From positions 1-64,000 of IMG/VR virus record IMGVR_UViG_3300011701_000001: a DNA stretch of 64,000 nt; one strand, 5' to 3'. Of the stretch, positions 44,185 to 48,765 are shown one piece after another. Each line of letters opens with the position of its first letter. The first letter of the stretch is position 1. Origin of the DNA: a virus (lineage: Duplodnaviria; Caudoviricetes). Made by a program: the position numbers and the translations under genes. The notes below the pieces were generated by a model, which had not been told where the DNA came from, did no database searches, and saw nothing but the letters and a program-made list of their open reading frames with translations.

Positions 44185-45702
44185 TTATCCTATAAGGGCT
44201 AAGTTAAGTTTTTTATACTCTTTAGTTGTTGCTAAGACGTTGAAAGAATCAGATGTTCCGTCACACTGATCGTCATGATAGCGTCTACTTACACCATCAA
44301 ATCTTTCTAACTCTGTAAAGTAGTCATCGTTCCAATCACCTTTAACAACTGAAACAATACCGTTTTCACAAGCTGCTGAGAAAGGTAGGAAGCGTACAAG
44401 TTTTCCACTCTTAGTGTTAGGTTTCATAAACTTGACAGGTAGACCAGCATTCGCAAACTCTTTAGCTCGTTGATGCTTGATACTTTTACCAGCTTCACCG
44501 GGATCGGTTGGAAGGTATGTCATTACACTACCAAACTGTTTGTTATCTTGCTTTGAGATTTTTATAATCTCATCAACAACTTCACCTTCACGTTTTCTAA
44601 ATCTGACAACATCTTCGACAATAAATCTTCCATCTTTTGTCTTAGCTATTAACACCCCTGCTGTGTAATCGGGGTCTGGATAAGCTTCTGATGGTATAGA
44701 ACATGCCATATCCCAACAACGAACTCGTCTAACTACTTTTGATAGGTAAGACATATCTTCGGGAATATGCGGATTTAACTGTGTAACCCAAGATTTCTTA
44801 AAGTAACCACTCTCTTCTTCAGAAGCATACCAGTTACCTTTTAATAATCGTTCCATCGTAACACGAGGTTGTGATGCTAATTGAGCAACATAGTCTGGAT
44901 TCTTCTTAATCGCTTCTGGGTTATCGAAACAATTAGCTCCAATAAATACAAAAGATTTAGGCTTACAGAGGTTTTCACCAGTGATAGGATTTGTTCCGAA
45001 CTTCGTGTGATATTTATCATACAGTTCTTCGAATGAATTACCCCATTTAAGGTCATTACCTACACGTAAGTAGTATCGAACAACACCGTTCACATCTTCG
45101 TTAGGTCTACCTTCTACAAGCTCATCATCAATGTATGTTCCTTCTGGATGGATGTAGAAATCATTAATCCACTTAAGAATATACGAAGACGGGTCAGGGT
45201 TACATGTTAACCAAATACAAGGTTTCATTTTTGCATTAGTACGAAGACGAGAAACAATCCACCAAATATCTTCTTCGATAAAGTGTGTTGCTTCGTCACA
45301 CATTGCTGCTGAAATCTCAATACCTTGAATAGCATCTCGACCAGCTTTATCATCCATACCTAAGAATGAAACAGATGCTCCACTAGGGAATCGAATCACC
45401 ATAGGTTGTTGTGTGTATGTTGTACCTTTTCTGAATGCTTGGAAAATCTTAACAGCAGTCCAGAATGCACCACCTTCTTTCTTCAAGTCAGTTGCATGTA
45501 AACGAAACACATAACCTACAAAGTCTGGATCATCACACCATTTTAAGAATTTTAATAGTCCAGTGTAACTCTTCCCACTCATCGCTGCTCCACCATATAC
45601 AGTGAAGAAAGCATCAGTATTTAAGAAGAGTGCTTGCTTATAACTTGTAGCACCAAATTTGGGTTTCTCAACAACCTGTTTTCTTTGTTGTGTTCTTGCC
45701 AA
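44185..45702 (-). CDS. terL: Terminase large subunit
   Basis: Walker A GGAAMSGKS, Walker B AAMCDE, TCNP coupling motif, nuclease WDMA...DYTA...HDDQCD. Confidence 0.95.
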   Translation of the reverse strand: MARTQQRKQVVEKPKFGATSYKQALFLNTDAFFTVYGGAAMSGKSYTGLLKFLKWCDDPDFVGYVFRLHATDLKKEGGAFWTAVKIFQAFRKGTTYTQQPMVIRFPSGASVSFLGMDDKAGRDAIQGIEISAAMCDEATHFIEEDIWWIVSRLRTNAKMKPCIWLTCNPDPSSYILKWINDFYIHPEGTYIDDELVEGRPNEDVNGVVRYYLRVGNDLKWGNSFEELYDKYHTKFGTNPITGENLCKPKSFVFIGANCFDNPEAIKKNPDYVAQLASQPRVTMERLLKGNWYASEEESGYFKKSWVTQLNPHIPEDMSYLSKVVRRVRCWDMACSIPSEAYPDPDYTAGVLIAKTKDGRFIVEDVVRFRKREGEVVDEIIKISKQDNKQFGSVMTYLPTDPGEAGKSIKHQRAKEFANAGLPVKFMKPNTKSGKLVRFLPFSAACENGIVSVVKGDWNDDYFTELERFDGVSRRYHDDQCDGTSDSFNVLATTKEYKKLNLALIG

Positions 45703-45716
45703 AATATTCCCCTAAA

Positions 45717-46112
45717 TTAATTTAAGGGTTTGTCGCCCTGTTCTAAAAAGTGATAACCCATATCTAATGTTGGAGTATCATCGTCTTCCAAATCAGTTAA
45801 CTTTTTGTACCCTTCACCATGTTCAGCTTCAAGCTCTTGACGAATAAGTTGATTGTTTTTAAGTACAGCATTTTGTTTATGAATCTTTTGAAAGTCAGCT
45901 TTTTCTTCCTTGTCTAAGATTACAATATGTGTCTTAACAATATTCATACCCATAGCAGCTTTGTCTTTAATACTTACTTTAGGGTCATCCATAAACTGTT
46001 CCATAACAGCTAATGCTTTAGCAACTAATGGGTTGGATTTAGCTTTAAGGGTTTTTAATGAGTAATCTTTAACAGGCTGCCCTGATTTAATCTTATCTAG
46101 TTCATCTGCCAT
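45717..46112 (-). CDS. Putative terminase small subunit
   Basis: Helical 131-aa protein immediately upstream of TerL; position only. Confidence 0.45.
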   Translation of the reverse strand: MADELDKIKSGQPVKDYSLKTLKAKSNPLVAKALAVMEQFMDDPKVSIKDKAAMGMNIVKTHIVILDKEEKADFQKIHKQNAVLKNNQLIRQELEAEHGEGYKKLTDLEDDDTPTLDMGYHFLEQGDKPLN

Positions 46113-46124
46113 TTTATTTATATC

Positions 46125-46553
46125 CTATTTAATAAATACTTTTGCTTCTTCTATATTATCAAAACAATCAATGTTGTTCTTAAACATAAAGTCTACGGAG
46201 TAGGATGGGAATTTATACGGTATAGAACCAGTCTCTTTACTACTCTCAACAGGAATTACGACAAACTTTGTATTATCTTCTGTTAAGACAATTTGAAGGC
46301 TTAATCCAACAATAGATTCACTGGGGATTGCTGTTGTATAAACAATAGTGTACTTAGACATGTCACCACTAAAGAATAAATCTTTGAGTTTTTCTTTAGG
46401 TGTATTTCCCTCGTAAATTCCATTACCACACCCCTCATTGCTTTCATACCAGTCAGCAAATACATTACTCATCCCAACAACTCCTAAGAAAGCAAAAGTT
46501 TTAATCCTAAAACAAACAAAAGGACACCAAAGGCATCCTAGTATTATTATCAA
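46125..46553 (-). CDS. Hypothetical protein (true start probably MSNVF)
   Basis: ORF track; AGGAG RBS before the internal ATG. Confidence 0.55.
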   Translation of the reverse strand: MIIILGCLWCPFVCFRIKTFAFLGVVGMSNVFADWYESNEGCGNGIYEGNTPKEKLKDLFFSGDMSKYTIVYTTAIPSESIVGLSLQIVLTEDNTKFVVIPVESSKETGSIPYKFPSYSVDFMFKNNIDCFDNIEEAKVFIK

Positions 46554-46575: not shown

Positions 46576-46941
46576 TCAAAAGAATACGTGATTACCAATC
46601 TTAACCTTCAAGGTCTTTTGGAAACGTACTCCAAGACGTTGGTGGTTGAAGTAAAGACTTCCTTTTGTATAATTCGTTTTATTTGTATAAAAATTCTTTG
46701 CGACTTTAACGCTCTCATCCCAAGCTTCTTTTTCATACTTAGGAGGTTTCAAAGAATTAGAACCTTTATACCAAGAAAACTGACCTTTCTGTTTAACTAC
46801 ACCGCAATACGTATTGGGGTAATTGTTATGCTTGCTTCTATTGTGAACAACTTCCATCACTCCATATTTACCCTTTGAGGGTTCTCCGCGAGCTTCCATG
46901 AACGCTGTCATTGCCAAACATAATATACTTTCACTAATCAA
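46576..46941 (-). CDS. Cell wall hydrolase, SleB/Hydrolase_2 family
   Basis: CLA.TA..EARGEP, V.NR, QFSW and IGNHVF motifs; start revised to TTG after GAGG. Confidence 0.88.
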   Translation of the reverse strand: MISESILCLAMTAFMEARGEPSKGKYGVMEVVHNRSKHNNYPNTYCGVVKQKGQFSWYKGSNSLKPPKYEKEAWDESVKVAKNFYTNKTNYTKGSLYFNHQRLGVRFQKTLKVKIGNHVFF

Positions 46942-47103
46942 AACACTTATCCTCTTTACGTAAACATGATAGTCTACAGGAAAGTGTTTAATTCGTAAAC
47001 TATCAATAGAATGACTGAAGTCTTCAAGACCTCCCCTGTCACCAATCGTATCCATTCTTTTAAATGTTTATCCTACATTTAGATTAAAAAATTGGTTTTT
47101 AAA

Positions 47104-47754
47104 TCATAAGGATTTAACATAATGACCATATAGCAGTCTATATGAATCTAAACGAGACAGGTTTGACAGGTTTTTAATATAGTCTGGATAACTATCTAAA
47201 ATCTCTATATTGTCTTCACATGTACCGTGAATAACCTGAACACCATCATAAATACAACCATTCTTTTCTTTGTCGAACTCATAATAATCTTCGTGTTCTA
47301 CTAAATAAGGTTTAACAAGGTTAAAGATGAAACCTCTGTCCTTTGTAGAGTTTGTATTCATGATAAGTTGTTTATTACTTCTTTTGGAGAAAAATTCTAA
47401 TGTGTAAGCTTCATCAACTTGACTTGCATTATCTACGAATGTGTAATCAAACTTTCTACCAACAAGTTCTTCTGGTGTTAAAAAAGATAACGTGGCACCA
47501 TTCTTCATAATAAGAAATAACTCTGGTTTATTCTCATAATGAATTTCTTTCGATAGAATTTCTTTAGAGGTGGTAAACACTCCACCATATGTTTTTAGGT
47601 CTGGTTTGTTTCTCATGACTACAGCACAAGAATTACCTTCTAATAAATATTTTTTTAACTTGAGCAGTCCTGTATAAGAACCACCTTTTCCTGCACCACC
47701 TGTATAGATGACAACAGAAGCTCCACTGTTTAAAAACAGTTGAATACTCTTCAT
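47104..47754 (-). CDS. Truncated TerL ATPase-domain paralog with degenerate catalytic motifs
   Basis: Co-linear with TerL residues ~20-290; Walker A K>G, Walker B DE>DN; no nuclease domain. Confidence 0.8.
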   Translation of the reverse strand: MKSIQLFLNSGASVVIYTGGAGKGGSYTGLLKLKKYLLEGNSCAVVMRNKPDLKTYGGVFTTSKEILSKEIHYENKPELFLIMKNGATLSFLTPEELVGRKFDYTFVDNASQVDEAYTLEFFSKRSNKQLIMNTNSTKDRGFIFNLVKPYLVEHEDYYEFDKEKNGCIYDGVQVIHGTCEDNIEILDSYPDYIKNLSNLSRLDSYRLLYGHYVKSL

Positions 47755-47790
47755 TTTAAATATCCTTAATAGGAAGTTAATATTTTGTTG

Positions 47791-48045
47791 TTAATATAAC
47801 GTACTCTTAAACACCAACATGTCCAAAACCTCTTTAGAGAAACCTACGTGTCTCTCAACCTCTATTCCTTGAGATTCTAAACAGATTGTTGGAACATTCT
47901 TGACTTTGTTGTTCTTCCCTTCTTCTGGGGATTCATCAACATCGACAATTAAATATTTCATGTAAGGGTAATACTTATCAAGATACTTAATTGTTTGAGC
48001 ACAAGGAGAACACCAATGAGAAACATATATCTTCATTTCAAACAT
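47791..48045 (-). CDS. Thioredoxin/glutaredoxin-like protein
   Basis: WCSPC active site and VPT cis-Pro motif; start MFEMK after an AAGGA RBS. Confidence 0.85.
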   Translation of the reverse strand: MFEMKIYVSHWCSPCAQTIKYLDKYYPYMKYLIVDVDESPEEGKNNKVKNVPTICLESQGIEVERHVGFSKEVLDMLVFKSTLY

Positions 48046-48069
48046 TGTATTGTCCTTGCATTTAGAATA

Positions 48070-48765
48070 AAAACACAACACTCACAACACAGGAGAATCG
48101 TACACTGAGTTACCTTTATAATCATTATGTAAGGCTTATTTTATTCGATGTGTGTACTATGTGTGAGGTTGCTAGGAGTAATCGTAAATAAATTTACTCA
48201 AAGTAATCGTTGTCAGTCTTTCCTGACAGTCATCTTACCTATTGCAAATCCAATCACGTTATGGAAGGATAGGTTGTGTTACCTTTCGATAAGACATTTA
48301 AAAGCATTCTGTTCCGAAGAACAACACCTCCGTCAGTACGTGACAACCGATAGATGTTTTTCACACATTACCTAAATTACAACACGTTGCAACTAAGATT
48401 AGTAATGTATTTTTCAATCCGCATTTAAAGTGGCGGAACACTCACAATCCAAGCAGAGAATCAATTCTTGTGCAAGGTTGCTAATGACCTAAGATACCAA
48501 ACTAACCGCGCTTGGGGTTAACCTTTATGTACTTCTACAAAAGCTCTTAGGTGCTACTGAGTCATGCCTAAACGGCTAAAATGTTGTCAGTTATTAAGGA
48601 CTCTGACAAACCTGATGGTAACTGCTACTTACCCTGTGTTATTCCACTCTTATCGTGATGCCACACAGTTCGGCTGACACAGGCTCAATTTATGTTTAAA
48701 CTCAGCTTGAGCTAATTAGCGGAGTACCCGATTCAGAACGTCAATTTGATAAGCCCTGAATCTTG
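48070..48765 (-). ncRNA. Putative large structured non-coding RNA / leader
   Basis: No credible ORF; many hairpins including C(UUCG)G and GAAA tetraloops on the minus strand; duplicated stem modules. Confidence 0.55.

Follow-up and report, generated by a model that had tools for sequence, protein, structure and literature searches.

A dispensable stand-alone paralog of the terminase ATPase domain that has lost the catalytic residues of the packaging motor

Beside the terminase genes of the phage genome studied here lies a gene for a 216-aa stand-alone paralog of the ATPase domain in TerL, the large terminase protein, and the main new result of this work is that the gene is dispensable. The catalytic residues of the motor are gone in the whole family of such paralogs, and, judged from its sequence, the product appears to be a complete TerL ATPase-domain fold that would no longer be able to work as a packaging ATPase. 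The gene is nevertheless maintained by selection, and a role as a TerL look-alike that acts by binding is the reading preferred here.

Genomic Context

The window, meaning the whole stretch of DNA analysed, covers the first 64 kb of an IMG/VR virus record that is 97,814 bp long and carries direct terminal repeats. The paralog gene occupies 47104..47754 on the minus strand, and the initial annotation was right in describing it as an intact ORF with a ribosome-binding site: the ATG is at 47754, the stop at 47104, and an AAGGA lies before the ATG with a 7-nt spacer, in the short interval (47755..47790, minus strand) that separates the paralog from a thioredoxin/glutaredoxin-like gene (47791..48081, minus strand). 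These genes belong to a late operon on the minus strand, which runs from a promoter-like site through the thioredoxin-like gene, the paralog, a cell-wall hydrolase (Hydrolase_2, SleB-like; 46576..47055), a 142-aa ORF (46125-46553) and a 131-aa ORF (45717..46112) to TerL (44185..45702), and continues past TerL with Mu-type portal, S49 protease and capsid genes. The strong promoter-like site is at 49085-49057, and about 1 kb without ORFs separates it from the thioredoxin-like gene. No convincing promoter of the paralog's own was found in 47755..47790, where the best promoter-like matches (9/12) are at the level of shuffled sequence, and no terminator was found on the minus strand between 48081 and 46576. 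The resident TerL (505 aa; Terminase_6N and Terminase_6C) has an intact Walker A GKS, Walker B DE and TCN, and the 131-aa protein encoded directly upstream of it, which has no Pfam, PHROG, NCBIfam or PADLOC match, is a putative small terminase (TerS-like) by its position only.

Homology and Predicted Structure

The co-linearity of the paralog with the TerL ATPase domain, which the initial annotation had noticed, is borne out: in a BLASTP alignment to the resident TerL (E 3e-16; 271 columns at 26% identity), paralog residues 6-215 align co-linearly with TerL residues 25-294, exactly the ATPase domain. In addition, the paralog matches PF03237 (Terminase_6N) with 26.3 bits against a cut-off of 22 (E 7e-6), its best PHROG is phrog_979 (E 3.2e-16), to which the resident TerL also belongs, and it matches phrog_9526 at 1.9e-7. 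The resident TerL is its closest full-length relative. The motifs that had been quoted as common to the two proteins (LFLN, SYTGLLK, DLK..GG.F.T, GA.[VL]SFL, C.DN......PDY..L and RLL.G) are all present, although the gap between the Y and SYTGLLK is 8 residues and not 7. PF17289 (the Terminase_6C nuclease) has no match in the paralog, whose ORF stops 6 residues past the ATPase domain. No family other than terminase was found for it in Pfam, PHROG, NCBIfam or PADLOC, the last two giving no match at all.

An AlphaFold2 model built with nine homologs has a mean pLDDT of 87.9, and its closest structures in Foldseek are solved TerL ATPase domains (E 3e-7, TM about 0.65–0.70), from which it follows that the paralog corresponds to the whole domain including the lid rather than to a fragment of it; the fold is thus the ASCE/RecA-like TerL ATPase fold with its lid subdomain. 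By sequence, an hmmsearch of the paralog alignment against the PDB found no solved structure at E up to 1, and TerL was recovered by the fold search only. The ESM Atlas returned short terminase-N clusters only, which had no discriminating power.

Family Census and Phylogeny

The family comprises about 16 clusters of 196–227 aa that are 37–87% identical and monophyletic, and its carriers are FelixO1/Acinetobacter-B9-like myophages of about 95–120 kb. A search of 5.8 billion proteins gave eight relatives (44–87% identity, 209–227 aa). In an exhaustive search without profiles, 1.84 billion representatives yielded eight clusters (196–216 aa) with E of about 1e-30 or better; the next matches were full-length TerLs, much weaker at no better than E 2e-10, and none of these 1.84 billion representatives is a fused or longer version of the paralog. 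When the 16 paralogs were placed in a tree together with 33 TerL ATPase domains, they grouped as a single clade with a support of 100, which is parted from all TerLs by a branch of about 2.8 changes per site; because of this long branch, the clade can be placed neither inside nor outside the subclade of the resident TerL.

Pattern scans yielded one further relative in IMG/VR (L008), none in the JGI metagenomes and, in the genome collection, only a MAG contig already in the family; this sole MAG is a horse-faeces bin and may merely contain a phage contig. Megablast of the region against 50,697 phage records gave no match, and tblastn of the paralog against cultured phages matched only the TerL of one phage, so none of them carries the paralog. 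No description of the family was found in the literature on terminase pseudo-ATPases, paralogs or decoys.

Residues Lost and Kept

Residue conservation was surveyed after 16 family members and 27 TerLs had been merged into one alignment. The initial annotation had inferred inactivated motifs, and this applies to the family as a whole. The Walker A lysine (TerL K44) is replaced by G in 14 members and by S in two, the catalytic glutamate of Walker B (TerL E137) by N in 13, C in two and S in one, and the coupling motif T166-C167 is lost in all 16, with N/S and T/S in its place. Similarly, R152 and R154 of the R-L-R motif and the adenine-binding glutamine (TerL Q23) are gone in every member. The paralogs also lack the first 19 residues of TerL, its 55-residue insertion (TerL 187–245) and the nuclease domain, so that the Walker A lysine, the catalytic glutamate and the RNase H-like nuclease of a functional packaging ATPase are all missing from the protein of the window.

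A second set of positions is kept. The glycine-rich loop (TGGAGKGGS, aa 18–26 of the paralog) has not decayed, and in this respect the description of Walker A as inactivated needs to be qualified: G19, G20 and G24 are invariant, TerL G38 and G43 being retained within an invariant and even glycine-richer loop, GG.G.G[GS][ST], and the Mg-ligand Ser/Thr is kept as S/T26. The Walker B aspartate (TerL D136) is present in all 16 members, and E143 is kept; within the segment FVDNASQVDE (aa 106–115), D108, Q112 and D114 are invariant in the family. E115, together with K138 and R140 in NTNSTKDRGF (aa 133–142), is at least 90% conserved across the 16 sequences, which reach down to 37% identity. TerL R67 is kept in 12 of the 16, and G77-G78, D260-N261 and the lid residues P269, Y271, L275 and G289 are kept as well; in paralog numbering, the kept positions include R48, GG57-58, the DN motif and the lid, whose motif H.T..DN...L...P.Y...L...LL.G spans aa 176–210. 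The loop lysine K23 was considered as a relocated catalytic lysine and rejected, since this position is K, N or R across the family. These patterns suggest that the motor chemistry is gone and that the shape of the ATP-site face and lid is under selection.

Presence, Absence and Co-Inheritance

The dispensability of the gene is seen most directly in G001, an IMG/VR record of 95,415 bp (98% complete) whose TerL and TerS-like protein are 99% and 98.5% identical to those of the window. No paralog is present in G001: the family profile, run across the whole record, matches TerL only, the thioredoxin and hydrolase genes are adjacent, and there is no match to window 47065-47792. The collinear 25-kb structural block (23.2–48.06 kb) has 89–94% nucleotide identity to G001, and its only two gaps are 46128-46481, in the 142-aa ORF, and 47065-47792, at the paralog. 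Four runs, each from a different study (X16, X18, X19 and X1), gave contigs in which 47058/47060 is joined to 47792-47807, and the joints contain 14–39 other letters; the paralog is therefore part of a gene-sized presence/absence cassette (47059..47800), in whose place close relatives have 14–39 nt. Zero cover of 47175-47694 was counted as absence only where contigs join across. An RNA-seq-labelled run contained only relatives' contigs of the form without the paralog.

The TerL type itself is very common: at E <1e-30 it counts 2,409 proteins, and 972 records of cultured phages have it, among them FelixO1-like, PAK_P1-like and Acinetobacter phages. None of the 50,697 cultured-phage records has the paralog, not even those of Acinetobacter phage B9 and Vibrio phage VH-8, whose module layout is that of the window. 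A sibling with a 99% identical TerL that lacks the gene, together with inheritance independent of the TerL allele, shows that the paralog is not a core part of the motor. The proposal that it is a timing subunit of the packaging motor has thereby been weakened and is now unlikely, in view of G001, the joints in four studies, the cultured relatives with the same module, and the lack of co-variation with TerL described below.

In every recovered locus the paralog lies 1–3 genes upstream of TerL on the same strand, with Cpn10, thioredoxin, cell-wall hydrolase and the small TerS-like gene as neighbours; it precedes the hydrolase in the window, L003, L005 and L006 and follows it in L001, L007 and L008. 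Between the window and L006 the paralog is 84% and the TerS-like protein 90% identical, against 48% for TerL, and between L006 and L007 the values are 50% for the paralog, 27% for the TerS-like protein and 69% for TerL. The paralog thus tracks its upstream neighbours and not the TerL allele, and the body of the 131-aa TerS-like protein is co-inherited with it. The TerS-like proteins encoded at window 45717-46112 and L006 7306-7692 are 90–96% identical over about 113–122 residues, with the C-terminal tail replaced; in L006 this tail has been swapped together with TerL (48% identical), which places a recombination breakpoint inside the small gene. The pattern would fit a TerS with a TerL-binding tail.

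Other parts of these genomes are also variable. The 142-aa ORF, which has no family match, is a second gene-sized presence/absence cassette: contigs of X16, X19 and X1 join 46126/46127 to 46497-46521 and so skip it, G001 and L005 are without it, and L007 has a weak relative (32% identity) at the same place. Between G000 and G001 about half of the genome aligns at the nucleotide level, with a mean identity of 88%; the structural module is collinear, and the early and replication regions consist of a mosaic of exchanged cassettes. In phage B9 the slot of the paralog, upstream of TerL and on the promoter side of the hydrolase gene, is occupied by a 221-aa hypothetical ORF, AB9_038 (L013 5134-5799). 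With an hhalign probability of 0.15, this ORF was rejected as a distant homolog of the paralog. This slot has the look of an accessory-gene hotspot.

Selection

The dN/dS comparison that had been suggested for this gene gave 0.12–0.32 for codons 1–175 among close relatives (window, L005 and L006), which indicates purifying selection, and the reading frames are intact, at 196–227 aa, in all 16 clusters. The view that the gene is maintained and is not a fresh pseudogene therefore stands, and a decaying pseudogene is excluded. At short range the paralog, with a dN/dS of 0.24, is less constrained than TerL (0.007), the portal (0.047) and the 131-aa gene (0.053), and its GC content is 31% against 38% in its neighbours. 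Over longer distances this difference is gone, and paralog, TerL and portal are equally conserved: between the window and L001 the identities are 48% for the paralog, 52% for TerL and 47% for the portal.

The last 40 codons (176–215) are much more diverged than the rest, and dS rises there to about 1.2 from 0.23, a roughly fivefold increase. For 47104-47229 (codons 176–216) the dS of about 1.2 is saturated against L006, compared with 0.13–0.27 in the rest of the gene. Since the excess divergence of these last codons is accompanied by raised dS, it points to a recombinant 3' patch relative to L005 and L006. Positive selection was considered for the high amino-acid divergence and rejected, because the excess is confined to codons 176–215 and dS is raised as well.

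Terminase Split Sites and a Proposed Origin of the Paralog

The TerL genes of L006 (7701-10590) and L007 (7355-10281) are split by an HNH_3 homing-endonuclease gene after ...LY[YF]G, a site that corresponds to G289|N290 of the window TerL; the ATPase-half ORF continues 5 residues beyond it, and the nuclease ORF starts with MNWYA. Rfam detected no group I intron in the split TerL loci. The TerL-N-only ORFs P0021 and P0024, from other metagenomes, end 4–8 residues past the same glycine, and the paralog ends 6 residues past it (G210). A second insertion hotspot is seen in L003 (2880-5412) and L014 (Vibrio phage VH-8; 5855-8404), where a short exon-like piece (...DADVIVFG) ending just before Walker A is followed by an HNH gene and then by the rest of TerL; such a TerL probably needs splicing, and the position of the insertion explains why the called TerL ORF of L003 has no Walker A. 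Meanwhile, the TerL homologs P0051, P0053, P0062, P0103 and others have 800–860 aa and contain intein/LAGLIDADG domains (PF14528, PF05204, PF14890), which makes the TerL of this clade a frequent target of several kinds of selfish insertion. Replacement of TerL is visibly frequent in these phages.

It is plausible that the paralog originated as the orphaned 5' half of a TerL after a split or a TerL replacement. The gene goes back to an old duplication of a FelixO1/B9-type TerL; it probably started as the ATPase half left over at the recurrent ...LL.G|NW insertion site, and purifying selection has kept it as an accessory gene of the late operon. The shared end point could also simply reflect a domain boundary.

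Possible Functions

The reading to which we give the best odds, although somewhat below one half (about 45%), is that the paralog binds as a TerL look-alike and brings a benefit under certain conditions, set by the host or by a competitor; this mode of action is one that we infer. A binding role is favoured because the protein has no packaging chemistry and the gene is optional and indifferent to the TerL allele, yet maintained, and because the best-conserved residues lie on the former ATP-site face. As a non-catalytic look-alike acting by binding, the protein would offer the ATP-site and lid face preserved from TerL to a partner whose usual contact is TerL itself, and only certain hosts or competitors would make it beneficial. 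A host protein that senses TerL's ATPase domain, of the Avs1-3 or Upx type, is the foremost candidate for this partner, although the specific target is a guess; TerL-sensing defence is the most concrete candidate because of the literature on such sensing. It has been reported that Avs2, Avs3 and Upx sense the TerL ATPase domain, that SeAvs3 reads TerL active-site residues and bound ATP, that EcAvs2 envelops the ATPase domain with a bridging ATP, and that Upx is activated by the ATPase domain alone, while Avs sensors appear to target monomers (PMC13601566; PMC13581612). Stand-alone TerL-ATPase-like phage proteins are known to exist, and their role has been stated as an open question (PMC13601566; PMC11564622). 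Two of them, T4 vs.8 and Ksap2, activate Avs2, and an anti-defence role was only speculated by the authors (PMC13601566; PMC11564622); the anti-Avs proteins reported so far, the ORF55 ligase and the DprA-like ORF83, are not TerL mimics (bioRxiv 10.1101/2025.06.06.658234). The paralog might be a decoy or shield that occupies or masks TerL sensors (Avs1-3, Upx type) or shields monomeric TerL without triggering them, in effect a copy of the TerL ATPase domain from which the catalytic and ATP-dependent recognition features have been removed. We regard this version as rather improbable; the activation of Avs2 by vs.8 and Ksap2 means that binding such a sensor is not obviously protective, and a look-alike may even be a liability.

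Several observations could be read differently. The fixed place beside the terminase genes would also fit a packaging role, in which the paralog would be an optional modulator of its own terminase that binds TerL (as a mimic of a ring neighbour, or at the nuclease domain through the lid), TerS or the portal, and tunes initiation, nuclease activity or timing for a gain in fitness without being essential. The position 1–3 genes upstream of TerS/TerL in the same late operon is constant across relatives whose TerLs are only about 50% identical, the paralog and TerL have the lid and the end-of-domain motif in common, and separate ORFs encode the two halves of TerL, ATPase and nuclease, in L006 and L007, so that the lid region may be able to dock a nuclease in trans. 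We still consider such a modulator unlikely, because the sibling with a 99% identical TerL and a 98.5% identical TerS-like protein is without the gene, as are cultured relatives with the same terminase type, because paralog and TerL do not co-vary (84% against 48%), and because the first 19 residues of TerL, and likewise its C-terminal domain, are missing from the paralog. These two regions of TerL are the parts usually used for contacts with TerS and the portal. The lack of the domain that presumably docks TerL on the portal also speaks against the idea that the paralog is a weapon, either a poison subunit or a sequestering mimic, which blocks the terminase of co-infecting phages or packaging-hijacking satellites. 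An accessory gene that is patchy among siblings, keeps the TerL fold apparently without its activity and is expressed with the late genes, as the promoter/terminator survey suggests, would suit that purpose; a weapon must, however, spare the resident TerL, and there is no allele-specific co-variation, nor is any satellite or competitor context known. To this idea we give only a slim chance.

The remaining alternatives turn on what the conserved residues mean. The invariant loop, together with S/T26 and D108, could be a sign that the protein still binds nucleotides or has an altered activity, which would count against a pure look-alike. With Q112-x-D114-E115 and K138/R140 added, these residues might make up a non-canonical site for phosphate or nucleotide, whose task would have nothing to do with TerL mimicry; nucleotide sensing and DNA-end binding are examples. 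G19, G20, G24, D108, Q112 and D114 are invariant, E115, K138 and R140 are at least 90% conserved, and together they make up the best-conserved face of the protein; degenerate sites in true relics usually decay. Against a remodelled enzyme or nucleotide binder stand the G or S in place of the Walker A lysine in all members, the variable K23 (K/N/R), the universal loss of the catalytic glutamate and the adenine-binding glutamine, and the lack of any family match except to terminase, so that we hold this doubtful, more so than the decoy. The least probable reading, to which we give very little weight, is that the gene is a functionless relic, the leftover 5' half of a split or replaced TerL riding in the operon. 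The end at the recurrent TerL split site, the ease of loss, the GC content of 31% against 38% and the close-relative dN/dS of 0.24 against 0.007–0.05 for TerL and portal would all agree with a relic, but the intact frames in 16 clusters down to 37% identity, the blocks of invariant residues, a dN/dS well below 1 and a long-range conservation equal to that of TerL and portal largely refute it.

Comparison with Known Systems

TerL-ATPase look-alikes have been noticed only recently, Ksap2 in 2024 and T4 vs.8 in 2026, in both cases through their triggering of Avs2. The present family adds an example that arose independently and is catalytically dead by nature. It is a copy of the full domain and lies next to the real terminase genes, and the splitting of TerL by a homing endonuclease, leaving an orphan half, offers a plausible route for its birth. 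Its presence or absence between otherwise near-identical phages provides natural isogenic pairs with which evasion, packaging and competition can be compared. If the decoy reading were true, bacterial protein-pattern-recognition immunity would have its first natural decoy in the paralog, which would also offer a function for look-alikes of the vs.8/Ksap2 type; if the protein were only a mild packaging helper, the outcome would be a modest annotation, "TerL-like pseudo-ATPase, accessory".

The closest parallel is T4 vs.8 (219 aa; Evans et al. 2026, Nat Commun, PMC13601566). Both proteins are stand-alone, of about 217 aa and with a TerL ATPase-domain fold, and each occurs beside a full TerL in the same genome and is restricted to one phage lineage. 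Unlike the paralog, vs.8 has intact Walker A and B motifs, is encoded in an early region far from gene 17, derives from a T4-type TerL and is toxic with EcAvs2, whereas the paralog has lost the lysine and the glutamate, adjoins the terminase genes and derives from a FelixO1/B9-type TerL. As a homolog of the paralog vs.8 was rejected (hhalign probability 0.2), and the lack of a detectable sequence relation indicates independent origins. Ksap2 (Bas60_220; Bechon et al. 2024, Nat Commun, PMC11564622) is likewise small and lineage-restricted and resembles the TerL ATPase domain; it was rejected as a homolog, there being no detectable homology, and its binding to the Avs2 sensor pocket shows that such look-alikes do meet TerL sensors (PMC11564622).

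The N halves of split TerLs (phrog_9526; L006/L007 TerL-N; P0019, P0021, P0024; phiPDS1, PMC10773633) are also ATPase-domain-only ORFs and, like the paralog, end a few residues past the same conserved glycine. They differ in that GKS/T and DE are intact in them, that a nuclease half accompanies them and that they constitute the only TerL of their genome, whereas the paralog is catalytically degenerate and stands beside a whole TerL or, in L006 and L007, a whole split pair. With the resident TerL the paralog shares its fold, its PHROG and 26% identity over the whole ATPase domain, and it differs in lacking the nuclease, the Walker A lysine, the catalytic glutamate, the N-terminal 19 residues and the 55-aa insertion, and in being dispensable. 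Among these systems, the paralog is an independently evolved, catalytically dead and dispensable example of the stand-alone TerL-ATPase look-alikes.
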